DNA from: Pseudomonadota bacterium
GTDB lineage: Bacteria; Desulfobacterota; Desulfobacteria; Desulfobacterales; RPRI01
Length of the DNA: 58,746 bases
Assembly: GCA_043825875.1 (NCBI GenBank)
Contig: JBDRRF010000022.1
Location: 1-58,746 of the forward strand
Direction: 5' to 3'
Shown here in pieces: positions 10,198 to 22,753 of the stretch (positions within the stretch are counted from its first letter, which is position 1; each line of letters starts with the position of its first letter). Position numbers and translations under genes: made by a program. Under the pieces are notes generated by a model. That model saw nothing but the letters and a program-made list of their open reading frames with translations. It was not told the DNA's origin and did not search any database.

Positions 10198-11379
10198 ATG
10201 GAAAAGAACCTGATATATAGATTGCTTCATGTCCCAGAATATTCTTTTTTTCTTTTCGGACCCCGTGGCGTTGGTAAAACTACATACTTACGGGAAGTTA
10301 TGCCTGGCGCCATCTTTTTTGATTTGCTTGAAGCGTCTTTAAACCTTGAACTTTCTATAAACCCCGGGCGTTTGGAAGCCATGATTGGAACACGCCCTAA
10401 AGATTCCTGGGTAGTCATTGATGAGATTCAAAGAATTCCCGGCCTTTTGGACGAAGTTCATCGCCTGATAGAAAACAAAGGCTGGAAGTTTGCCTTATGT
10501 GGCTCGTCTGCCAGGAAGCTTCGACGCGGTGGTGTCAATCTTTTAGCCGGACGAGCGGTTACGCGAAGTCTTGACACCTTCTCTTTTGGGGAATTGGGAC
10601 AAGCTTTTGATATTGAGTTTTCTCTGGAATGGGGACTTTTGCCTTGGATTCAGATGCATCGTGATAATCCGACAGATTTTCTGAGTGCGTATGTAGATAC
10701 TTATCTTAAAGAGGAAATTAAAGAGGAAAGTATTGTTCGCAGCTTACCTCCATTTTTGCGATTTATAAGTATTGCCGGACAGTTGAACGGTCAAATGGTT
10801 AATGGGCAGAATATTGCGCGTGAGGCTGGGGTACCAAGAAGCAGTGTAGATGTATATTTTTCTATTTTAGAAGACACCTTGCTTGGGCACTTTCTTCCTG
10901 CCTATAAACCGGGGGCAAAAGTACGGGAACAGACACACCCGAAATTCTTTTGGTTTGACCCTGGCGTTGCCAGAGCGGCAGCAGGTCTGCTTTTTGATCC
11001 GGTCGACCGGATATGGAAAGGTTCAAGTCTTGAAACTATGATTTTGCATGAGTTGAAAGTTTACAACCAAACTCAGGAAAAACATCGAGGGATCTATTTC
11101 TACAGAACCGGAAGCGGAGTTGAAATTGATTTTGTAATTGAGACAAAAAAACGGCAGCAGTTGTCCAATCCTCATGTTGTGTGCATGGAAGTCAAGATGG
11201 CGGAAAAATGGGACAGAGGGTGGGAAAAACCTATGCGTTCGCTCAATGAATATAAAGGAATTCATGTAGATCGTATGATCGGCATCTACAATGGCGCAAG
11301 GGTCTACCATTATGATGGTGTAGATGTCCTTCCTGTAAAAGAATTTCTTGAACAACTGCATCACGGTAAAGTTTTTTAG
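10198..11379 (+). CDS. AAA ATPase with DUF4143 / C-terminal PD-(D/E)xK-like domain
   Basis: Walker A GPRGVGKT, Walker B VVIDEIQ, GSS, LAGR, 'K..WFDPG', 'EIDF..E...EVK'. Confidence 0.9.
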   Translation: MEKNLIYRLLHVPEYSFFLFGPRGVGKTTYLREVMPGAIFFDLLEASLNLELSINPGRLEAMIGTRPKDSWVVIDEIQRIPGLLDEVHRLIENKGWKFALCGSSARKLRRGGVNLLAGRAVTRSLDTFSFGELGQAFDIEFSLEWGLLPWIQMHRDNPTDFLSAYVDTYLKEEIKEESIVRSLPPFLRFISIAGQLNGQMVNGQNIAREAGVPRSSVDVYFSILEDTLLGHFLPAYKPGAKVREQTHPKFFWFDPGVARAAAGLLFDPVDRIWKGSSLETMILHELKVYNQTQEKHRGIYFYRTGSGVEIDFVIETKKRQQLSNPHVVCMEVKMAEKWDRGWEKPMRSLNEYKGIHVDRMIGIYNGARVYHYDGVDVLPVKEFLEQLHHGKVF

Positions 11380-11691: not shown

Positions 11692-12675
11692 TCATGTCTT
11701 AACCGCCATAACCGAGCTGATCAGCCACGCGGTATAGCCCACATAAACCACCAAAAGAGCTGCACCTTCAAAGCGGCTTATTCGCCCCTGACGACCTCTG
11801 AATCCATATCCGATCAGGAAGAGTGAAACGGTCAAAGAACCCATCACAATCATGTCGCGTGAGAGCGTTTCCGGCTCCACCGCAAAAGGATGGATCGATC
11901 CGGCAATCCCGACAACGGCCAGCGTGTTGAACAAGTTTGAGCCGAGCACATTTATAAGAGCGATATCATGCTCACCCTTGCGGGCGGCAATGACGGATGA
12001 CGCCAACTCCGGCAAGGAGGTGCCCACCGCAACAATCGTCAAACCGATGATCATGTCGCTAACACCGAAAATCTGAGCAATTTCCACCGATCCCCATACA
12101 AGGATGCGCGAGCTGGCAATGAGCAACAGCAACCCGGCGACAAGCCAGAAAACAGCCCGCTTGATCGGCATTTCTTTTTCGGCAGTTTCAGACTCAACCT
12201 CTTTGGCCAACGTATCGGTTTTTCGTTTCAAGCCCTGAATTATGGTCCATGCCATCAGCCCACCAAAAACCAAAAGCAAGACTACGGCATCGAGCCGTGA
12301 TAAATCGAGGTCTGCGAGAAGGCCCACGGTGAGAATGGTCACGAGTGTCAGTATGGGCAGTTCTTTGCGTAATACCGTCGAATGAACCATGATTGGATTT
12401 ATCAGGGCGGACACCCCGAGGATCAGGGCAATATTACAGATGTTTGAGCCATAGGCATTCCCAAGGGCAATTCCCGCATTCCCGTCGATCGAGGCCAGTG
12501 CCGACACCACCATCTCCGGTGCGGAAGTCCCGAATCCAACGATCACCATGCCGATCAACAGCGGCGGCATGCCGAAATGACGTGCTGTAGAAGCTGAACC
12601 TTCCACAAACCGATCCGCGCTCCAAACGAGCAGAACCAGACCGGCTATTAAAGCCACAATCGCCATTCCCATCAT
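11692..12675 (-). CDS. Calcium/sodium antiporter (YrbG / CaCA family)
   Basis: Two alpha repeats GTSAPE / GTSLPE and GSNICN / GSNLFN. Confidence 0.92.
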   Translation of the reverse strand: MMGMAIVALIAGLVLLVWSADRFVEGSASTARHFGMPPLLIGMVIVGFGTSAPEMVVSALASIDGNAGIALGNAYGSNICNIALILGVSALINPIMVHSTVLRKELPILTLVTILTVGLLADLDLSRLDAVVLLLVFGGLMAWTIIQGLKRKTDTLAKEVESETAEKEMPIKRAVFWLVAGLLLLIASSRILVWGSVEIAQIFGVSDMIIGLTIVAVGTSLPELASSVIAARKGEHDIALINVLGSNLFNTLAVVGIAGSIHPFAVEPETLSRDMIVMGSLTVSLFLIGYGFRGRQGRISRFEGAALLVVYVGYTAWLISSVMAVKT

Positions 12676-12699
12676 CTAATTCCCTTATCAATAAACAAA

Positions 12700-13773
12700 T
12701 CAGTCTTCTTTATTTTTATCATTCTCATGTTCCAGTTGTTTTATAACTCGGTCAAAGTCACTCTCAAAGAGCCGATCCTGAATAATGCGGTATTTTTCAA
12801 ATTCGCTTTCGGCATGCGCTTTGGCAATTTCCGCCGTTACCCTTCCAGCGTCCTGCAGGATTTCCCGGTCGGTAGCTTCGATGAATTTGTTCAAGCGTGT
12901 TTCCCAATCCTGCATGGTCATCGGCATCTTGCGCAGGGCCATATCCTCGGCCACATCCAGGTAGGCGTTCACCAGACGGGTCAGTTGTGCCATTTCATTT
13001 TCGGTCAGATAGTTTTTAGCTACGCTCACATCAAACTTCTGGATTTTACCTTTTGGAGCATCCTTCCAAGTTGTCAGCCCCATGTTCTGCTTCTGGTGGT
13101 CTGCCCGGTCGACGATCACTTCGGCAGCTGTCTGGCCGTGAATAGCCCAGTGCAGCTTGTTTTGAACCGTGGCAAAGAATCGCTTGGTCGCCTTAGCTGT
13201 CACATCATAATCAATGGACGTGGCGTAGATGTCGGTGATCTTCTGGTAGAACTTGCGTTCACTCAGGCGTATTTCCCTGATGCACTCTAGCTGCTCTTCA
13301 AAATACTGCTCAGTCAGTATAGAGCCGCCGCTTTTTATCCGTTCATCATCCATCACATAGGCTTTGATGGTGTATTCCTTTATGATGATGGTGGCCCATT
13401 TGCGGAACTGGACGGCACGCTCTGAGTTGACCTTATAACCGACGGCGATGATGGCCGAGAGATTATAGTGTTTGGTGTTATAGTTTTTGCCGTCAGCGGC
13501 AGTTATTCGAAAATTTCGAATAACTGAATCTTCTTCCAACTCACTGTCGGAAAACACCTTTTTCAGATGATAATTGACGGTGTGGGTTTCAACATCGTAG
13601 AGAACCCCCATCATTTTCTGAGTCAGCCAGATGTTCTCGTCTGCGTAAACCGCCTGAACGCCGCCCTTGCCGGTGGCGGCAACAAATGTCAGGTATTCCG
13701 CAGCCGAGGATCGAACAATCGATGTCTCTTTTTTTCCGGACTTTTGAAGTTGCTTGTTTTTGTCCTTCTTCAT
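12700..13773 (-). CDS. Virulence RhuM family protein
   Basis: 'IWLTQK.M..LY', 'YNL.AII.VGYKVNS..A..FR.WA', 'IREIR.SE..FY', 'FFA.VQNKLH.A..G.TAAE'. Confidence 0.9.
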   Translation of the reverse strand: MKKDKNKQLQKSGKKETSIVRSSAAEYLTFVAATGKGGVQAVYADENIWLTQKMMGVLYDVETHTVNYHLKKVFSDSELEEDSVIRNFRITAADGKNYNTKHYNLSAIIAVGYKVNSERAVQFRKWATIIIKEYTIKAYVMDDERIKSGGSILTEQYFEEQLECIREIRLSERKFYQKITDIYATSIDYDVTAKATKRFFATVQNKLHWAIHGQTAAEVIVDRADHQKQNMGLTTWKDAPKGKIQKFDVSVAKNYLTENEMAQLTRLVNAYLDVAEDMALRKMPMTMQDWETRLNKFIEATDREILQDAGRVTAEIAKAHAESEFEKYRIIQDRLFESDFDRVIKQLEHENDKNKED

Positions 13774-14360
13774 TCAACGCCTCCCCAGTTTTGATACCTG
13801 TCCCGGGACCAGCGGAGATATTTCACCAATTCCCAGTTGATCGATTCGGAATCAAACCGCTCACTGTCGTAATCGCCACCGGACCATTCCATGTAACTTT
13901 TGTGCTCTTCATGGTTCGGGTCCTTCAGGGCGTTGCAGAATTCAAAGTAGCCGGGTACGCCGCCCACATCTTCAGGTGGGCAGGCCCGTTCGCCTTCAAG
14001 GCAGGCCAGGTCCGTTCTCAGTTCCGGATTAAAATAGCGGCTTTCTTCGAGAACAAGTTCATGCTCCCAGCTGTCCCCGAAGTCATACAGATAACGGAAG
14101 GTGCGGCCTTTCTGTTTGATCAGGTCTCCAAGACGATATCGTCCGCAGACCAGCCCGTCTTCTTTCGATTCAGGGTATTCCGTGTATCGTTTATTCCCGA
14201 TGGTAAATTCGTGCAGATGGCTGTCGGTCCAGCCCATGACAATCTGGATAACATCATGCAGCCGATCCAGCGTAATGCTGGCGGGCACCACAAAACGACG
14301 CCAGATTACCGATTCTATATCAAGCAGCTGTACTTTCAGCAGATAAAATCGTTCGTTCAT
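13770..14360 (-). CDS. Plasmid pRiA4b ORF-3 family protein
   Basis: 'IWRR..VP...TL..LH..IQ..MGW...HLHEF', 'YLYDFGD.W.H', 'G.RACPPED.GG'. Confidence 0.9.
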   Translation of the reverse strand: MNERFYLLKVQLLDIESVIWRRFVVPASITLDRLHDVIQIVMGWTDSHLHEFTIGNKRYTEYPESKEDGLVCGRYRLGDLIKQKGRTFRYLYDFGDSWEHELVLEESRYFNPELRTDLACLEGERACPPEDVGGVPGYFEFCNALKDPNHEEHKSYMEWSGGDYDSERFDSESINWELVKYLRWSRDRYQNWGGVE

Positions 14361-15715
14361 GTCTTCACCTCATATTTTGACCAGAAGCTTCGTTTACGAC
14401 CATGGTCCTCAATGATCCGAGCTTTGAAAGCTTCGTGATGATGAAATTTTTTCCAGTCAGCGACACTTGCCGCCAGTTTGTCCAGCTTTTTCAAATACCG
14501 GATACCATGGGGATACGCTTTGGTGTACCCACGTTCCAGAATGGAGATAAGTAAACTGCGGTAGATCAGGTTGGTGACAAGGTGACGGTTTTCTGCCTCC
14601 ATCGCTTCTGCCAGAGATAGCAGGCTGCCGTAATGGTTCCCATCAAGCTGGTCGGCACGCCCCAGGAGATATAGTTCGGCTTCATCTATCTTTCCGACTG
14701 CAATCAGGAATTCCGCATCCGACTCCCGGAGTCTGTCGGCTTTCAGAATCACCTTCACCTCATCAGTAACGACTTCATCCCGCTTGTCATGACCAATCAC
14801 ATCCAGAAGCGCCTGCAATGTGTCTGTGGAATGATAGGATCTGAATTTCTGGAGCAGGAGTTCCGTCAGCTTTTCGGAGTCGCCTTGCTTCTGATAGATC
14901 TCCTCCAGCAGCTTATCCCGCTCGTATGCCTGATAGGTTTCTCCTTCCGGGATTTTTTTCAGCCATGAATGGGCCGTTTCAACATCACCGCTTTCAAGGT
15001 AGACACGGGCAATATCAATCAGCGCCGCAGTGGAAAGCTTTCCCCATGAAGCAATGCGCGTTTTTTCAAACAGCTTTGCATCCTTGATCTGGCTGGCCAG
15101 TGATTCGATGGATCTTAGGTGATGACGTTTGCCGTACTCATCCTTTGCTTTGTCCGCCCATTTCTGGAGCGTGGCGATCATGGTGCGGATAACATCCTCG
15201 GGCAGGCACTCTCCGGCACAGTCAATCAAGGTATCCCTTATGCCGTAATTGTCCTTTTGGTTCACCTTGAGAATGATGTCTGCAATTTTATCCTTGTCAG
15301 AACAACGGGAGGCATAGTCCACAAACAGTTCTTTGGCATCATAGCGGAACACATCGCCAATATTGCCGCTGGAGTCATCACACATCTCGAAAATGGTGTT
15401 GTCGGCCTCGTAAAATGCCGCAACCAGTTCAACGCCGGTAAGCGGATCATCCACACCGGCTTTCAGATCCTGCAACAGCATTTCCAGTTCACGGGAAAAA
15501 CTGGCGGATTCGCGCCAGTCAATAAAGCGCCTTGAATGTTTCAGGCTCGAAAGCTTCTTCTTAAATCGCTGAACATTTTCCTTGGGTGTGGCAATCAGTT
15601 GCTCGATCAGGTCATCCGCTTCGTCGGAATGAACGGCAAGATTCAGCAAAGCATCTGCCAGAGCATCCGCACCAAGAGCGATCAGTTTTTGTTTGCGGTC
15701 ACTACCCGATGTCAT
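14357..15715 (-). CDS. Alpha-helical hypothetical protein, DUF6880-like
   Basis: 452 aa; 'CDDS.G.IGD', C-terminal 'Y..G..YL..L...H.RK.SFW'; translationally coupled on both sides. Confidence 0.6.
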   Translation of the reverse strand: MTSGSDRKQKLIALGADALADALLNLAVHSDEADDLIEQLIATPKENVQRFKKKLSSLKHSRRFIDWRESASFSRELEMLLQDLKAGVDDPLTGVELVAAFYEADNTIFEMCDDSSGNIGDVFRYDAKELFVDYASRCSDKDKIADIILKVNQKDNYGIRDTLIDCAGECLPEDVIRTMIATLQKWADKAKDEYGKRHHLRSIESLASQIKDAKLFEKTRIASWGKLSTAALIDIARVYLESGDVETAHSWLKKIPEGETYQAYERDKLLEEIYQKQGDSEKLTELLLQKFRSYHSTDTLQALLDVIGHDKRDEVVTDEVKVILKADRLRESDAEFLIAVGKIDEAELYLLGRADQLDGNHYGSLLSLAEAMEAENRHLVTNLIYRSLLISILERGYTKAYPHGIRYLKKLDKLAASVADWKKFHHHEAFKARIIEDHGRKRSFWSKYEVKT

Positions 15716-17343
15716 GAGGTTTCTCTCTCCAATACAGCGCCTGCATCCTCCAGTATCGCTTTGATTTCCGGGGTCAATTTCCCCTGTATTTCAGCCTCCT
15801 GGGATATCTGAACATACTTGAAGGTGTTGAGATCAAACGGAACCCTGTCGCCGGAATCCTGAGGTTCAAACAGATAGATAAGCCGGTTTTGCTCATGGTG
15901 CTTGAGGGCGTAGCCTGCTTCCACATAGACATTGGGGCGATGCCCGGTCAGGTCGCAGATGATGATTTCGGAACCGGCAATGGCTTCGTACATTTTCTGA
16001 TGGATCGGGAAGGTTCCGCCTTCTTCCGTCCCCATGTCGATCAGTTCCAGTGAAATACCATACGTCCGTTGAAAATTTTCAAGGGTTTGCCGCAACTGTT
16101 CCAATCTCAGATTCGCTTTGTTGAAGGCGCCGTTGGGGGCATCAGCCGGAGGATACCACCGGGCCAGAAACACCTTCCGTGGAATTCGATTTTGGGCGGC
16201 ACGAAATGTGGTCAGAAGCTGTTGTGCCGGGGAAGTCGGATTCAACAGACCGGTAATCCCTTCACTGCCAAGCCATCGGCCGATGCGATCCAGTGTCTGA
16301 ACGGACAGGGATACCCGGTCTTCATGGGTGCCGGTCGTTTCCCGCCAGATGCGTGCGGCCAGTTCAAGAAACGAATGGGTTTTACACAGTGACGGATGAT
16401 TGACCGTCAACCGAACCAGGATATCGGAAAGACCGGCAAAAAGATCATCGGCAAATGCTTCCAGAGCCCCTCTGCTATCCACAATGGTTTCATCCACAGC
16501 AATGAGATTTCGGGCCGCTTCCCAGAGAACTGTCAGTGGACGCTCACCAAAACGCTCCCGGGCCGGTTGGGGCAAACCCTGCAATTTGGTTGACAACAGT
16601 CGGGTCAGATAGAGTTCGGGGCTGTAGTTGAATTCGTTTTCCGGGGTCATGTCGTAGGCCGAATCCTGTCCCAACAGAAGCCGCAAGCCATGTTCGGATT
16701 CCAAAGGAAGTGCGGTATTGTTGATGGTATGAAAGATCAGCGACTCGGCATAATCATCCGCCTCGTTTCCCGCATCTCCCAACAGGATCAAACAAAAGGG
16801 GGCAATAAATTTGGTGGGTACGGTGGGATCATCCTGAAGCTGCTCGGCCAGTGCCAGCCGATGGTTACCGTCAATCCGTCGAATCAGTTTATCTTCCTTG
16901 ATTTGGTCAAGATCCTGCCGCGCCATTCGAATCGTCTGAATACGTGTGGTTTTGCTGCTGTAACGACGCCTGATGGAAACTGGGGTGCGCTCGTCATCCT
17001 GCACCCCGATCACAAATCCCGGTGGTTCATCCGTTTCCGCCACCATGCGTTGATCCTGATCAATGGGAAGAACCGGCACCCGGCAGGAGAGCACCACTTC
17101 CGGCAAAAAGCGGTTGTCGCTCTGTTCCAGATAGTTCTTGATGTCCAGGGCATGCTTTTCATTCAGCTCCCGCTGATGGCCGACAACCCGGCATGCCTGG
17201 GTGTCATGCTCGGTCATCTCATAGGGCACCGACACCGCCGCCAGATCCCGCAGATCGGCAAAGCCCCGGATCACCCGGAAAATACCCAACACGTTTTCGG
17301 CAAAATACCCTTCAAACTGGATGTATTGACGACCGCGTGACAT
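15712..17343 (-). CDS. DGQHR (DndB/ParB-like) domain + C-terminal nucleoside 2-deoxyribosyltransferase-like domain fusion
   Basis: GHQR.L...H...I..Y, 'FLPEVVL', IDGNHRL, 'IFHTIN..A.PL'; C-terminal 'IIICDLTGHRPNVYVEAGYA...VPFDL'; start moved to ATG 17343 just after the S-gene stop. Confidence 0.7.
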   Translation of the reverse strand: MSRGRQYIQFEGYFAENVLGIFRVIRGFADLRDLAAVSVPYEMTEHDTQACRVVGHQRELNEKHALDIKNYLEQSDNRFLPEVVLSCRVPVLPIDQDQRMVAETDEPPGFVIGVQDDERTPVSIRRRYSSKTTRIQTIRMARQDLDQIKEDKLIRRIDGNHRLALAEQLQDDPTVPTKFIAPFCLILLGDAGNEADDYAESLIFHTINNTALPLESEHGLRLLLGQDSAYDMTPENEFNYSPELYLTRLLSTKLQGLPQPARERFGERPLTVLWEAARNLIAVDETIVDSRGALEAFADDLFAGLSDILVRLTVNHPSLCKTHSFLELAARIWRETTGTHEDRVSLSVQTLDRIGRWLGSEGITGLLNPTSPAQQLLTTFRAAQNRIPRKVFLARWYPPADAPNGAFNKANLRLEQLRQTLENFQRTYGISLELIDMGTEEGGTFPIHQKMYEAIAGSEIIICDLTGHRPNVYVEAGYALKHHEQNRLIYLFEPQDSGDRVPFDLNTFKYVQISQEAEIQGKLTPEIKAILEDAGAVLERETS

Positions 17344-17344
17344 A

Positions 17345-18728
17345 TCAGAGGTTCTCCACTGAAAGGGTGCCGAGGATGAGTTTTTCAACCGTTTTGGTAG
17401 ATTCCTTCACAAGGGTCTTTGCTTTATTATCAAGCAAATTTGATTCTTCTCTCATAGTTGCAATTGCGTCTATTGTATTTTTTTGAATATTTAGAGATGG
17501 CAAAGGGAACTTCAAACCCATTAGCCCAGGTTTTGAGATTTTTTTCATTGTCGGCGATGTCCCTGTGAGGTTTGTCTCAATTTGCCAACGTAAATGGGGA
17601 ATTTTGAAGATTTCATCTAAATACTCTGGAAGGATTACCGAGTTTTCTTTCCAGATCACCCTAAACATCAAATCACAGAGCATTAACTTTGCACGAACTT
17701 CACCAGCTAAAGCACAAGCACCAACATATCTAGGCACATTTCCTCGGCAAATTAGTAGGTCCCCTGTTTTAACTTCATATTGAGGTTTGGGCTTCATTTT
17801 TGCTGGCAGGGCTTTGTTTTCATTCTCGTTAAATACCCCAAAAGATATAGCACCAAGTTTAAGGGTGCCCCATTCGTCAATATTTGCTGGACGATTTAAA
17901 CTTTTTGGACTCCATCCTGTTTCCAAATCAACAATAACATCCGAGAGAGAAACAATAGGAAAAGAGCTCCTGGATAAGTTTGGTCGGCATGTCCTTTCAC
18001 GGGCAATGTTTACACCCCACCGGTCGATTTCTTTCCATGATGAAACAAATGACCTTCTTGAATGAGCCTGCTTTAATGGTTTTAAACCTATTTCTGAAAC
18101 CAAATAATTAGGTATGCTATTATTTATTTCATTTGACTGCTCAATACATTTATTAGCGATAAAATTTTCACCCTTCCAATACTCCACAATTTTTTGCTGA
18201 ATAGGGATCGGGGGCAGAGGAACTTTCAACGTTTCAAGCAACGGGTATGTCAGGTTCATCCTTACAGAACCGGCAGTTGCTGCACGAAGGGTTTTATTGA
18301 AAAATTCTGATTTCAGAATAAACCAAAACAGTTCCGGCAAAATAATATTTTCATCAATAGAAAAAAACAACATAGGCCGGACTGATAAAGGCCCCGTCAT
18401 GTTTATCCGGAACCCACCCGATTGATCCAACGTTAATCCGGTATGGGTTGTATGCAAAATCTCCTGCTGATACTTTTTTATATGGCTGTTTAATTCCTTT
18501 ACCAAGGGCATCATAGGCATGAAAAATTCCGTCAATGTTATTAACACCAAGAATTTTGAAGGTATCGTCCGGGAAATTAAACGGACGTACTTTTTCATTA
18601 TGCTCACGAACAAACGTGGATAAAGAAACCAAGGGATACTTTGATTTGATTCGTCCGGTAAAGTATTTGACATCCCAACGATCAAGTTCGCTGAAATTGA
18701 TATAGCGAGGGGTTGCGGCAGTACTCAT
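17345..18728 (-). pseudogene. hsdS: Restriction-modification specificity (HsdS-like) subunit, frameshifted in a T7 run
   Basis: ORF 18728-18354 (..AFISPAYVVFFY*) continues in another frame (..FSIDENIILPE..); removing one base of the A7 run at 18361-18367 gives SPAYVVFSIDE and two TRDs with 'PLPP...QQKIV' spacers. Confidence 0.8.
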
Positions 18729-20968
18729 TATTCCGCCCCTCCAGCATCGGCAAACGCCTCAGGATCAGCCAAAAACTCCCGATACCACTCCAGGCAGGTC
18801 TTTTCATCATCCTTCGGTTGGTTGGGCCGGGGGTATAGCTCGTTCCCGTCTTCCTCACCGGTGGCAGTGATGCCCACCTTTTCGGCCTCGTACATAAAAA
18901 TGGGATAGTCGAAACGCACTTTGAGCAACTGGCGGGATTCGGCGATCTTTTTTTCGTCCATCTCTTTGAGGTAGATTTTCAACTCTTTTTGCAGCTCTTT
19001 GCGCCCTTCAGTATCCTTTTCCTCCTTGGCTTTGGCAATGGCGGTTTCCAGCCGTGTTGTTTCGGCGTCGATCTCATCGGCGTATTTGTCTTCTATTTCC
19101 TTTTTGGATTGTGCGTAGGTCTCATCGAACTTTTGTTTCTGCTCTTCTGTATATTTTTGCAGAAACAGCAGGGAACATTTCACGCTGGCCCCGGAACTGA
19201 CAAAGGTTTCCTGGGGCAGGCTGACCACTGCTTTTAAAAAAGCCCGGTCTTCCGTGAATTCACGCACATGGGCCAGGGAGGGGTTATTGTATATTCCTTC
19301 CGGCAATACGATCCCCATGCGGCCGCCGGGTTTAAGCAGATCCAGACACCGTTCAATGAAGAGGATTTCGGTTTTGATCTTTCCATAGACTATTTCCCCC
19401 TTCTTGCGCGTGTGTTTCGGCAGGGTAAAGAGGGAGGCGATGGATTTATTCATGGCAGCCTTTACCCTTGCCTGGGCCTCTTCGTATAAATCCCCGTACT
19501 CGTCCTTATATCGCTTAGCGGCTGCCGGTGTTACGGCAATCTCGCTCTCGGCAATCTTGTCACTGGGCTCAACATTGGCCCCGAATGGCGGATTGGTGAG
19601 AATAATATCGAAACGCCCCTCAAAAATTCCGTTTACATTCAGAAAGCCGTCATGGTGATGCACACCGCCGTGGCCGTCTCCATGCATGATCATGTTCATC
19701 TTGCTGGTGCGGGCCATGCGGTCATTGGCGTCGGTACCATAGATACAGCGGTTGGAAAGTTTCCACATGCGCGACCCTTCGTTGCGCTGGTCGATGGTTT
19801 TTTGGATCTCATCAAACTTTTTGCGTAATTGAAGAGCTTTCTCCTCTTCGCTCAGCGTTTTGTCTTGGGTGAGTTTTTCCTTGAACGCGTTATACTGCCT
19901 GTCTGCATCGGCCAGAATCTGTTCCCGAACCATTTCAAAGACACGAATCAGAAAGCCGCCGGAGCCGCTGGCCGGGTCGCAGACAATCTCCCCCTCTTTG
20001 GGGTCGACCATGTGAACCATGAATTCGACGATCGAGCGCGGCGTGAAAAATTGCCCGATCTCACCCCGGAAGGTCCGGCCGAGAAACCGTTCAAATGCGA
20101 CACCTTTGATATCTTCACTGGTGTCAGAGAGATTGTATTTTTCCAGTTGGCGGACAATTTCCGTTCCGGTGGCCGGTTTTAGGTTGATGCGCTCATCATC
20201 CTCAAAAATCTTGTCCGTGGAATAGGCCTGTTTGGTCTGTTGAAACAACCAGTCCAGCGGATTGTCACCCAACTGCTCTTCGAGATAATCAACACTGAAA
20301 AGGTTCTTGCGTTTGCGTTTTTTGTTCAGTTCCCGTTCCACCCAGACCTTTACAAACAGGATCTTGGCGATTTCATCAAAGGCGGCTGCCGGATCTTTCT
20401 TTTCCCGGTTACGGATCACGTTATGGCACTGGTGCAGAAGGTCGGCAAATTCCTTCTCTTTAAATACACGGAGTTTGGATAACAATTCCTTGATCTCTTT
20501 ATCCGACGCATCGGCATGGGGAATGTTTTCGATCTCCTCTATATAGCCGGGCATTTTGTCTTTTTTGACACGCCAGAACTTGGTTTCCCGCGAGTTATGC
20601 GTCACAAAAAAAGGCGCATCAGCGATGCGGGCATAGTTTTCACCCTGGGCATAGTCCGCCGCTTTGATCGTCACATTATCGGCCTTGCATTCAATGATAA
20701 TAAACGGCGCTTTCTGATCGGCCTTGTCTTTGGCGGTTCGCCAGATAATGAAGTCTGCCCGTGCCTGGGCGCTGCCCCGGCCTGTGACATTGACTTCCTC
20801 ATCAATCTGATCCAAAGAATAGCCGTATTCGTCAATCAGGACGGTCAGGTATTGCTGCCTTACCTCTTCCTCCGGCGTCAACGTCAACCATTTCTGACGT
20901 ACCGGACTGAAAATTTTATTGCCCTCAATCCGAACCTCGTCCGCCTTTTTAAATTTTTTTCCTGCCAT
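18728..20968 (-). CDS. Fused restriction endonuclease-N6-adenine methyltransferase (HsdR_N-like + HsdM; Type IIB/IIG-like)
   Basis: N-terminal 'PEE.VRQ...RADF.I...IIECK' nuclease motif; GQFFTPR, DPASGSGGF, TNPPF. Confidence 0.88.
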   Translation of the reverse strand: MAGKKFKKADEVRIEGNKIFSPVRQKWLTLTPEEEVRQQYLTVLIDEYGYSLDQIDEEVNVTGRGSAQARADFIIWRTAKDKADQKAPFIIIECKADNVTIKAADYAQGENYARIADAPFFVTHNSRETKFWRVKKDKMPGYIEEIENIPHADASDKEIKELLSKLRVFKEKEFADLLHQCHNVIRNREKKDPAAAFDEIAKILFVKVWVERELNKKRKRKNLFSVDYLEEQLGDNPLDWLFQQTKQAYSTDKIFEDDERINLKPATGTEIVRQLEKYNLSDTSEDIKGVAFERFLGRTFRGEIGQFFTPRSIVEFMVHMVDPKEGEIVCDPASGSGGFLIRVFEMVREQILADADRQYNAFKEKLTQDKTLSEEEKALQLRKKFDEIQKTIDQRNEGSRMWKLSNRCIYGTDANDRMARTSKMNMIMHGDGHGGVHHHDGFLNVNGIFEGRFDIILTNPPFGANVEPSDKIAESEIAVTPAAAKRYKDEYGDLYEEAQARVKAAMNKSIASLFTLPKHTRKKGEIVYGKIKTEILFIERCLDLLKPGGRMGIVLPEGIYNNPSLAHVREFTEDRAFLKAVVSLPQETFVSSGASVKCSLLFLQKYTEEQKQKFDETYAQSKKEIEDKYADEIDAETTRLETAIAKAKEEKDTEGRKELQKELKIYLKEMDEKKIAESRQLLKVRFDYPIFMYEAEKVGITATGEEDGNELYPRPNQPKDDEKTCLEWYREFLADPEAFADAGGAE

Positions 20969-20981
20969 AACCTTGCGTTCC

Positions 20982-21680
20982 TTAATTTAAAATCTTTCCG
21001 TGTTCCATAAAACTGTAATAGCATTCCCGCCCGATAATAATGTGGTCCTGAAGAATGATTTCCAAAACCTCAGCCGCCTGCTTCATTTTTTGAGTTGTCT
21101 CGATATCCTGTGGCGATGGGGTTACTTCACCAGAAGGGTGATTATGAACCACAACAACAGCACTGGCCGATAGTCTCAGGGCCTCTTCCATGACTTTCCT
21201 TGTATAGACAACGGATTGCGTCGGGATACCCTCCGAAATAATCCGTTCTGCTAAAAGATTGTTCTGCCCGTCAAGCAGAAAAGCCAAAAATTGTTCGTAA
21301 CGTTTACTTTCAAACTTCGGATAGCAATACCGGGCAATAGCTCCGGCCGAATCAAATGAAACCGGTTTCACATCCAGCCTTCGTACACGTTTACCTATCT
21401 CGATAGCCGCCTTTAGCTGCGCTGTTTTTGCCAAACCCAGCCCTTTGATCTGCATGATATCTTCAGCGTGTGCCCGGTCAATTCCCTGAAGTCCTCCCAG
21501 TCTGGCTACAAGATCTCTTCCCATATCAATAGCAGAAGCCCCCTCATTGCCGATACGTAGCAGAATAGCCAATAACTCTGCGTCGGTCAGCAATTCTGCT
21601 CCAAACTGAATCAGCTTCTCTCTGGGACGCTCACCCTCAGGCCATTGTTTTATTGAAAGATTATGGGGTTTCTTAGTCAT
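20982..21680 (-). CDS. radC: RadC / JAB-domain protein
   Basis: 'ERPREKL...G...L.DAELLA', HhH, HNHPSG...PS..D, 'DHIIIG'. Confidence 0.92.
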   Translation of the reverse strand: MTKKPHNLSIKQWPEGERPREKLIQFGAELLTDAELLAILLRIGNEGASAIDMGRDLVARLGGLQGIDRAHAEDIMQIKGLGLAKTAQLKAAIEIGKRVRRLDVKPVSFDSAGAIARYCYPKFESKRYEQFLAFLLDGQNNLLAERIISEGIPTQSVVYTRKVMEEALRLSASAVVVVHNHPSGEVTPSPQDIETTQKMKQAAEVLEIILQDHIIIGRECYYSFMEHGKILN

Positions 21681-21885
21681 TCAGATTCCCCAGTTCTTTT
21701 TGTGTTGCGCAAAAGGAATTGAACTGCTTAAGTGCTAGTTTGGATGGTAATGTTTTTCCATTTTCCCACCGGTTGACAGTGGCAAAGCTGACACCAATCG
21801 CATGGGCAAGGTCCTCCTGACTTAGGTTTAGCTGAATGCGTACCTTTTTTACACGTTCAGAAAATGGTTCTGATTCTATTGTCAT
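21673..21885 (-). CDS. XRE-family HTH regulator (controller-like), 70 aa
   Basis: 'R....LSQEDLA..IGVSFATVNRWENG...PS'; start moved to ATG 21885 after AAGGTG. Confidence 0.85.
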   Translation of the reverse strand: MTIESEPFSERVKKVRIQLNLSQEDLAHAIGVSFATVNRWENGKTLPSKLALKQFNSFCATQKELGNLND

Positions 21886-21945
21886 TGTGCCACCTTGATT
21901 CTTTTTGATGCATAATTTACCTCGATCTTCAACCCTATTGACGAC

Positions 21946-21973
21946 GTTATAACATTTGCTATTGCACGTGCAA
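21946..21973 (-). promoter_or_regulatory. Candidate sigma-70 promoter of the island operon with overlapping palindrome
   Basis: Minus strand TTGCAC-N16-TATAAC with TGn extension; perfect palindrome TTGCACGTGCAA at 21962-21973. Confidence 0.5.
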
Positions 21974-22094
21974 GTATTTTGTGCAACAGGCACCCTCGAT
22001 TGTCTTACTCAATCAAAAAAAGATTAGAAAGTTACCGACACGTTCTCCGTCTCTCCGGTAAGTAAGGCTCAGACAAACTAAACACAGGAGAAAC

Positions 22095-22400: not shown

Positions 22401-22753
22401 TGGTGGAGGCGGCGGGAGTTGAACCCGCGTCCGAAAATCTTCCGCACAGGCGTCTACATACTTTTCCTGAAATTTATATATCGCTGAATTATGCCTCCTT
22501 CAGGCAAGATGCATAAGCCGGCTACCCTGTTATTGTTTCGATGGTCTGCAACAGGTGGTACAAATCATCTATCCTACTAGTCGACGTCCTTATCTTATCC
22601 GCAGGAAAAACAGGACAGGACGTTGGCCCTAAGCGGCCAATGCGTAATTATAATCGTCTGCGATTATGTTTATTTCCCGTCTCTTTAACGAGCTGACAGG
22701 CGCTCGGTATGCAACCTGGACTTCTTTATCCCCGTCGAAGCCGTTTCGCCCCC
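22401..22753 (-). ncRNA. ssrA: tmRNA, tag peptide (A)DDYNYALAA
   Basis: 5' GGGGGCGAAACGGCTTCGAC; 3' GGACGCGGGTTCAACTCCCGCCGCCTCCACCA; tag ORF at 22661-22629; 353 nt. Confidence 0.97.

Follow-up and report, generated by a model that had tools for sequence, protein, structure and literature searches.

Closest described systems and the locus under study

PrrC and PARIS are established guardians of restriction-modification (R-M) systems, encoded in or beside R-M loci and proposed to form a second line of defense (PMC12707154). Here, we analyze a 58,746-nucleotide (nt) stretch of DNA, referred to as the window, which spans positions 1 to 58,746 of contig JBDRRF010000022.1 of a Desulfobacterota genome (GenBank assembly GCA_043825875.1). 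The window contains a 543-amino-acid (aa) open reading frame (ORF) on the minus strand (17343..15712), the third gene of an R-M cassette. Similar to PrrC and PARIS, it is an accessory gene at an R-M locus, and it may back up the restriction enzyme. The encoded protein is predicted to fuse a DGQHR/DndB-type nucleoside triphosphatase (NTPase), a helical domain and an NDT/MilB/TIR-like glycohydrolase.

With GmrSD, BrxU and SspE, the protein shares the N-terminal QR, DGx(H/Q)R and FxxxN motifs, followed by a helical domain and an effector in one chain (PMC4619093, PMC12065111). Unlike these proteins, whose effector is an HNH (DUF1524) nuclease, it ends in an NDT/TIR-like putative glycohydrolase and is tied to an adenine-methylating R-M cassette. 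Its helical domain lies at the same place as the eight-helix DNA-binding domain of SspE and GmrSD, a likeness by position only. The nearest sequence family of the N-terminal domain is DndB/DpdB, from which it differs by carrying DGNHR instead of DGQHR, by scoring below the family cut-offs and by its added C-terminal enzyme domain. DndB itself has been proposed as a backup nucleotide-degrading effector (PMC10853773).

The C-terminal domain resembles RcaT, BcTpr and the TIR effectors of CBASS and Pycsar in its NDT/TIR-like fold, first-strand Phe and catalytic Glu. NAD+ use and assembly-dependent toxicity have been reported for effectors of this type (10.64898/2026.10.13.758329, 10.1101/2023.05.26.542521), and a further source counts DrHyd domains among the NAD+-degrading effectors (10.64898/2026.10.19.760177). 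In contrast to RcaT and CBASS, no retron reverse transcriptase or cyclase gene adjoins the ORF, the gate is predicted to be the N-terminal DGQHR NTPase, and the middle acidic residue of RcaT has no clear counterpart. The fold and the nucleophile Glu are shared with MilB, DNPH1 and the NDTs. However, the general acid and the phosphate-binding Ser of these enzymes are replaced, Phe stands in the first strand as in MilB and not Tyr, and the domain is part of a 543-aa fusion in a defense island.

The two partner genes encode a fused nuclease-methyltransferase (RM) and a separate specificity subunit (S), an arrangement also found in type IIB (BcgI-like) R-M systems and in mad2/mad5 of the eight-gene MADS. 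The partner genes can be regarded as type IIB-like; type IIB enzymes cleave on both sides of a bipartite site. To our knowledge, no third gene of this kind has been described in BcgI-like R-M systems or in MADS. Among eight proteins of the window, no match to mad3, mad4, mad6 or mad7 was found, and mad8 matched weakly (E 0.026). PrrC, a guardian activated on inhibition of its R-M enzyme, is made of an ABC-ATPase and a HEPN anticodon nuclease; neither domain is present in the protein studied here.

PADLOC 2.0 returned partial-domain matches but no system for the query and 23 homologues, and no NCBIfam model scored above its cut-off for the query. Full-text literature searches yielded no description of this fusion, although subscription papers, supplements or DefenseFinder could contain one, and the accessible parts of PMC3710099 and PMC12839542 do not describe it. 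An initial annotation, made from the DNA sequence alone, had proposed a candidate new anti-phage sensor-effector. The protein is an uncatalogued domain combination with a strong R-M link, in which a GmrSD/SspE chassis carries an NDT/TIR-type effector in a PrrC-like position. New here are the pattern of gene loss, the gene swaps in the third slot, an active-site argument for NAD+ and a broken S gene.

A three-domain protein with invariant motifs

The following features are distinguished in the third gene:

15712..17343, minus strand: third gene of the R-M cassette, predicted DGQHR/DndB-type NTPase - helical - NDT/MilB/TIR-like glycohydrolase fusion
16684..17343, minus strand: N-terminal DGQHR/ParB-like domain, approximately aa 1-220, with Q57 R58, FxPE (79-82), RIDGNHR (156-162), FHxIN (204-208) and E217
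16189..16683, minus strand: all-helical middle domain, approximately aa 221-385, with conserved R248 and W357
15733..16185, minus strand: C-terminal NDT/MilB/DNPH1/TIR-like domain, aa 387-537, with F392, D464, P470-N471-V472, E475 and PFD (502-504)

An AlphaFold2 model (pLDDT 90.3, pTM 0.74) comprises an alpha/beta N-terminal domain, a helical middle and a Rossmann-like C-terminal domain; a model computed from 34 close homologues was poor (pLDDT 65) and was not used. The initial annotation had read the same anatomy from the sequence. Its HQR, DGNHR and F..IN motifs lie where it placed them (H56-Q57-R58, D158-G-N-H-R162 and F204-H-T-I-N208), its helical middle is seen in the model, and its Rossmann-like domain (D464-L-T-G-H-R-P-N471-V-Y-V-E475-A-G-Y-A, P502-F-D504) is borne out by the model and by structural matches to MilB, DNPH1 and TIR domains.

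Conservation was assessed in an alignment of the query with 48 near-full-length homologues taken from the 150 representatives listed. One of the 49 rows, P0217, has a GmrSD-type N-terminal domain that fits poorly there; it was kept in all counts. Eleven columns are invariant across these diverse sequences (Q57, R58, D158, G159, R162, W357, F392, N471, V472, E475 and G477) at a mean column identity of 23%. The motifs, mostly those named in the initial annotation, are thus more than chance. The family itself is large. A protein search identified at least 622 relatives at E ≤ 0.001 among 8,000 scored candidates, the 120 relatives listed being 64-96% identical and nearly full length, and a search of representative proteins found 568 at the same threshold. 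Homologues range over Desulfobacterota, Pseudomonas, Sphingomonas, Chlorobium and gut clostridia. A phage collection, in a scan that did not extend to viral contigs, gave 0 matches, and no longer fused forms were found at 952-2,715 aa, which is weak evidence.

In the N-terminal domain, the QR pair is invariant (49/49 for both residues), the DGQHR pentapeptide is present as the variant DGNHR (D158, G159 and R162 in 49/49, N160 and H161 in 48/49), and the FxxxN motif is retained (F204 48/49, N208 47/49). These three motifs define the DGQHR and DUF262 domains (PMC4619093, PMC12065111). TIGR03187 matches 46 of the 49 members at E ≤ 0.001 and PF14072 matches 15 at E ≤ 0.01, the query staying below the curated cut-off of both (34.8 versus 58.85 bits and 15.3 versus 29.1 bits, respectively). 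The DpdB model matches six members (E ≤ 0.001) and GmrSD_N two, the DGQHR/DndB models fitting the members instead. In addition, the atlas places the query by DndB clusters (0.96). A single-sequence search of the PDB gave a best E of 0.12, and a 24-row profile of the domain had 0 matches to PDB sequences, with which a ParB fold is still compatible. In whole-model structure searches, the match lists were filled by the C-terminal domain, and the ParB/Srx fold of the N-terminal domain is a prediction from sequence.

A DndB-like protein has been found to bind both ATP and GTP (10.1101/2025.10.10.680097), and DpdB, an ATPase stimulated by DNA, has been modeled as a dimer around DNA (PMC10164549). 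More generally, the characterized DGQHR and DUF262 proteins are DNA-binding, DNA-stimulated NTPases (PMC10164549, PMC12065111). By analogy with DpdB, SspE and GmrSD, the protein would be expected to hydrolyze nucleoside triphosphates (NTPs) and to bind DNA. The DGQHR assignment of the initial annotation is supported, whereas its description of the protein as nucleotide sensing is probably too narrow. In DndB, GmrSD and SspE, a DNA-binding helical domain comes after the ParB-DUF262 domain (PMC12065111); judged by its position, and not by a structural match, the helical middle is the likely counterpart.

An active site that points to NAD+

Structurally, the C-terminal domain aligns best with MilB (Z 14.6, root mean square deviation 2.9, 135 aligned residues, flavodoxin-like alpha/beta fold) and DNPH1 (Z 14.5, root mean square deviation 2.3-2.5), followed by TIR domains (Z 11-13) and NDTs (Z 10-12.6). 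A 28-row profile of the domain finds Rcl/DNPH1 at E 5e-7, and the PADLOC CBASS "TIR" effector model matches aa 427-520 (E 1.4e-10). E475 (49/49) occupies the nucleophile position, where it is aligned to the Glu of Rcl and of trypanosome NDT, and F392 (49/49) is aligned to the deoxy-selecting Tyr of NDTs. In a gapless alignment, the general acid of DNPH1 (D80) falls on position 451, which is hydrophobic in 49/49 sequences (23 Ile, 20 Met, 5 Leu and 1 Val), and the position of the phosphate-binding Ser (S98) holds Arg or Asn in 43/49. A charged nicotinamide leaving group requires no general acid.

The R469-P470-N471...E475 motif can be set beside N80-P81-N82...E86 of BcTpr, in whose MilB-like domain N82A or E86A abolishes production of a cyclic ADP-ribose (cADPR) isomer and reduces NAD+ loss (10.1101/2023.05.26.542521, preprint). 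MilB accepts ribose through its Phe, and F17Y switches it to deoxyribose (PMC10603095); the RcaT triad likewise starts with Phe (10.64898/2026.10.13.758329). Together, Phe392, the missing general acid and the PNVxxE motif favor NAD+ over deoxynucleotides. Substrates do differ within the NDT fold, as the Ec86 NDT effector is reported to deplete adenine derivatives and not NAD+ (10.1101/2023.08.16.553469, preprint). The residue pattern thus suggests NAD+ or a close ribose nucleotide as the likely substrate, which narrows the nucleotide-cleaving activity proposed in the initial annotation.

The same structural matches bear on a second explanation, which we regard as unlikely. The C-terminal domain, fed by the ParB-type NTPase, could hydrolyze modified phage nucleotides (e.g., hydroxymethyl pyrimidine monophosphates) or excise DNA bases, so that the phage stays R-M sensitive and the cells survive. 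MilB and DNPH1, whose Z scores of 14.5-14.6 exceed the 11-13 of the TIR domains, are hydrolases of hydroxymethyl-CMP and hydroxymethyl-dUMP, respectively. In addition, DndB has been proposed to target phage-made modified nucleotides (PMC10853773), and NDT domains in conflict systems to act on DNA (PMC3710099). However, the residues that set this site apart (Phe at 392 and not Tyr, no general acid at the D80 position, Arg or Asn at the S98 position) speak against it, and a harmless sanitizer explains the repeated deletion of the gene, described below, less well.

The TIR-like fold also allows for a signaling role, in which the protein would sense phage DNA and convert NAD+ into a cyclic ADP-ribose-type messenger for an effector elsewhere, like Thoeris ThsB. 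A cADPR isomer is the product of the BcTpr domain, which has the same PNxxxE motif (10.1101/2023.05.26.542521), and TIR/DrHyd domains are noted to serve as effectors, as producers of signals or as sensors (10.64898/2026.10.19.760177). However, no conserved partner gene follows the third gene, the downstream genes varying freely, and we hold this role to be decidedly improbable.

The C-terminal domain family is also fused to other domains, which in other genomes include Schlafen/AlbA_2 and unknown domains (L030-L052). In the genome studied here, a fusion to a response-regulator receiver domain is encoded on contig C12 (L023:1051-1884).

Coupling to the R-M genes

The two partner genes lie directly upstream of the third gene:

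18728..20968, minus strand: 746-aa nuclease-methyltransferase fusion (RM), HSDR_N_2 + N6_Mtase, with intact D72/E93/K95 (PD-(D/E)xK), Q108/Y112 and NPPF
17345..18728, minus strand: HsdS-like specificity subunit gene (S), frameshifted at a T7 run (18361-18367)

To survey the neighborhoods of homologues, 101 loci were collected, part of them from the best 80 of 473. We excluded 11 that lacked an N-terminal match, 12 whose upstream sequence was shorter than 900 nt and 12 duplicates, leaving 66 distinct loci. An S and/or nuclease-methyltransferase ORF is located upstream in 65 of the 66, in 60 cases within 60 nt; in the remaining locus, the homologue is found just behind a type I hsdR gene, so that an R-M gene is upstream in 66/66. 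The S and RM profiles used for this count were built from 36 of the surveyed loci, and the RM protein of the window gave the same picture. Among the 11 loci dropped for the missing N-terminal match, L012, L015, L017, L019 and L020 are fragments with no R-M gene nearby. The R-M link persists down to 24-30% identity and in a distinct RM subfamily (L118-L132). The coupling to R-M noted in the initial annotation is therefore stronger than one locus could show.

Distances between RM proteins correlate with those between third-gene proteins (rho 0.73, 36 loci, Mantel p 0.001), and the two genes are broadly co-inherited, with swaps. The RM nuclease residues are intact (D72 36/37, E93 37/37, K95 37/37), indicating that the R-M enzyme needs no outside effector. 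A complex prediction for RM residues 284-746 with the third-gene protein scored 0.00 with no folded controls, and the result was counted neither way.

In the window, a 1-nt gap separates the end of the S-frame stop (17345) from the ATG of the third gene, whose first base is 17343, and a GGAG in the 3' end of the S gene precedes this ATG by approximately 10 nt. The initial annotation had described a start 1 nt after the S stop; the gap is real, but the S gene is not intact. Its first frame stops after 124 aa at the T7 run, and the stop adjoining the third gene is consequently not reached from the S start. T7 is also present in the contig of the probable source run (depth 35), which is not independent, and three other runs contain close relatives whose sequence is shorter by one base at this point. 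The frameshift makes the R-M enzyme of this strain likely dead. The T7 run could reflect simple decay or a slippage switch that turns R-M off. In two of the three other runs, the match breaks off precisely at 15712, where a different gene follows, which marks the third gene as the last gene of the conserved unit.

Several observations were made on individual loci. In a close relative in run X3, the part of S at window positions 17388-18184 is replaced by 777 different bases while the rest of the cassette is near-identical; this difference is a swap of one target-recognition domain. In a gut-type subfamily (L125:4632-5345, L127:3437-4171, L121:7257-7988), S and the third gene are separated by an unannotated gene of approximately 240 aa, and a second, apparently broken R-M-like gene set is present downstream of the first cassette in one locus (L018:14652-16141). 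Plasmids gave one weak match, in Leisingera (L146:4870-7113), annotated as an N-6 methylase. As a natural methylase-DGNHR fusion this candidate was rejected: a cut-off methylase is fused to the final two thirds of a homologue lacking the QR motif, likely a deletion product.

Loss and replacement of the third gene

When the survey started from the RM protein instead, with two candidates scored per genome, RM was found in 11/400 genomes of the phylum and 13/400 of the class, 22 of them distinct. Four of these end at a contig edge, leaving 18 readable cassettes. The third gene is intact in 4, a remnant or frameshifted in 11, replaced by a SIR2-like gene in 1 and without trace in 2. Of the 11 broken copies, five have full-length RM and S neighbors, one has an intact S and an RM cut by the contig, and five have a broken RM or S. 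Several deletions keep both gene ends with differing end points, which points to separate events. A role as essential R-M subunit was rejected because deletion of the gene is seen in cassettes whose RM and S are full length. The cassette probably restricts without its third gene, which appears to be old but dispensable, and the frequent loss, combined with an invariant active site in the survivors, fits a costly effector.

The replacement, in genome G135, is a 448-aa SIR2-like protein in the third slot, 29 nt behind S (L136:3939-5285); it has no Pfam match, and its SIR2-like assignment comes from the atlas (0.98), with weak agreement from PADLOC (E 1e-4). A TIR protein and a DUF2726 protein are encoded upstream of this cassette. 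On a Flammeovirga plasmid (L160:9503-11209), a helix-turn-helix (HTH) gene, RM and S are followed by a 568-aa PtuA/AriA/mad3-like ABC ATPase gene that overlaps the S stop. Of three plasmids carrying a more distant RM gene, two were examined: behind S, one has the ABC ATPase and the other nothing related. Among 400 genomes of the phylum of G401, one more RM gene was detected (G544, 47%), with no third gene.

These data also weigh on whether the gene is a DndB-like regulator of the R-M operon, acting as a repressor or restriction-alleviation switch, with a C-terminal domain that binds nucleotide and causes no bulk destruction. ATP-dependent repression of the dnd operon has been ascribed to DndB (10.1101/2025.10.10.680097), and both the tight translational coupling and the co-inheritance with RM would suit such a role. 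However, we think it quite unlikely: the Glu at the catalytic position never varies (49/49), in 5/18 cassettes the gene has been deleted while R-M and S remain full length, unrelated effector-type genes have replaced it elsewhere, and a separate HTH gene already heads the cassette here.

It is very improbable that the gene supplies the principal effector of a MADS- or SspE-like system based on methylation, in which the methyltransferase and S would mark self DNA and this protein would read a missing mark, or that it is a selfish addiction gene with no role in defense. RM does resemble MAD2 (298 bits, cut-off 720) and S resembles MAD5 (35 bits, cut-off 400), and SspE reads a DNA mark with a related NTPase (PMC12065111). 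However, the RM nuclease residues are conserved, the third gene is lost more often than RM in this sample, and it is intact here although S is broken and self DNA is therefore likely unmarked.

Proposed role as an abortive backup of restriction

In our judgment, the chances are about even that the third gene encodes a DNA sensor under NTP control that, as an abortive backup of R-M, unleashes a fused NAD+ glycohydrolase. The DGQHR/ParB-type domain and the helical middle are predicted, by analogy with DpdB, SspE and GmrSD, to bind DNA as a dimer under NTP control. Once activated, the protein would bring its C-terminal glycohydrolase domains together, as in RcaT (10.64898/2026.10.13.758329) and DNPH1 (PMC10603095), whose activity depends on assembly. 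The assembled domains would then break down NAD+ or a closely related ribose nucleotide, halting the infected cell after failed restriction. Our preferred guess for the trigger is phage DNA that escapes restriction because its bases are modified or because an anti-restriction protein shields it. Indirect support for a backup-effector role comes from the loss of the gene where the R-M genes are intact and from the SIR2-like and ABC-ATPase genes in the same slot, and the GC-shifted island beside the transfer-messenger RNA (tmRNA) gene and the reuse of the C-terminal domain with other N-terminal domains (Schlafen, receiver) were counted in its favor as well.

Several observations weigh against this backup role. 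The top structural matches, MilB and DNPH1, are hydroxymethyl-pyrimidine nucleotidases and not NADases, and the likeness to BcTpr is one of motif spacing taken from the text of that paper, with no alignment. In FastTree phylogenies, 5 well-supported splits are shared between the third-gene and RM trees and 10/16 conflict, which argues against a tightly co-evolving partner. The genomes sampled are related, so that the counts are not independent events, and the five broken copies (of 11) adjoining a broken RM or S, like the frequent deletion as such, could also fit general decay at a variable island edge. Finally, the third gene is intact beside the broken S gene here and beside split RM or S genes in L014, L062 and L098, where assembly errors are possible. 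Its product is thus not simply a toxin that intact R-M subunits restrain, and switching on by a trigger is more likely than inhibition by these subunits. Lost translational coupling could be another way in which the gene is silent here.

A broader proposal, possible if rather doubtful, is that the gene represents a widespread R-M guard in which a GmrSD/SspE chassis has its nuclease swapped for an NAD+ glycohydrolase, detects uncut phage DNA and depletes NAD+; the third slot of the three-gene cassette would then also take SIR2-like or ABC-ATPase guards. Few R-M guards are known (PrrC, PARIS). If true, such a single-chain guard, combining an NTP switch and an NAD+-type effector, would reveal how failed restriction is detected by the cell, and restriction would be linked directly to NAD+-based abortive infection in one three-gene cassette. 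The protein would also allow a direct test of DGQHR/DndB sensing, a disputed matter for which repressor, NTP-sink and DNA-sensor roles have been put forward.

Genomic surroundings of the cassette

On the minus strand, the gene order is tmRNA, HTH, radC, RM, S, the third gene, DUF6880, pRiA4b ORF3-like, RhuM and an Na/Ca exchanger. The features flanking the cassette are as follows:

22401..22753, minus strand: tmRNA gene, directly upstream of the GC-richer island that contains the cassette
21673..21885, minus strand: small XRE-type HTH gene, candidate cassette regulator
20982..21680, minus strand: RadC/JAB gene, often upstream of the cassette
12700..15715, minus strand: variable downstream genes DUF6880, pRiA4b ORF3-like and RhuM, outside the conserved unit

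The GC content is 42-53% across 12000-22000, versus 41-42% in the window flanks. No integrase was detected in the ORFs examined between the tmRNA gene and the cassette, and no duplicated tmRNA 3' end was found. Promoter-like sites occur at chance level (13 versus 12.3 by chance). In the RNA runs, at most 0.14 of the words matched, and run X17 is probably DNA.

The initial annotation had reported no dnd, dpd or retron genes here, which holds as far as the following searches reach. DndB and DndC have no match in this 99.8% complete genome, and no dnd or dpd genes were present among the neighbors scanned, dpd having been searched in these neighbors and not genome-wide. Reverse transcriptase (RVT_1) matches are confined to contigs C109 and C68, the cassette being on C22. 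A trans-acting DndB of a dnd system and a retron effector were rejected on these grounds as identities for the third gene.

The radC and small HTH genes, located here at 20982-21885, precede the cassette in many loci. Toward its far end, the island carries a candidate AAA_14+DUF4143 gene (PADLOC PDC-S01-like; 10198-11379) and a candidate RhuM gene (PDC-S05; 12700-13773).

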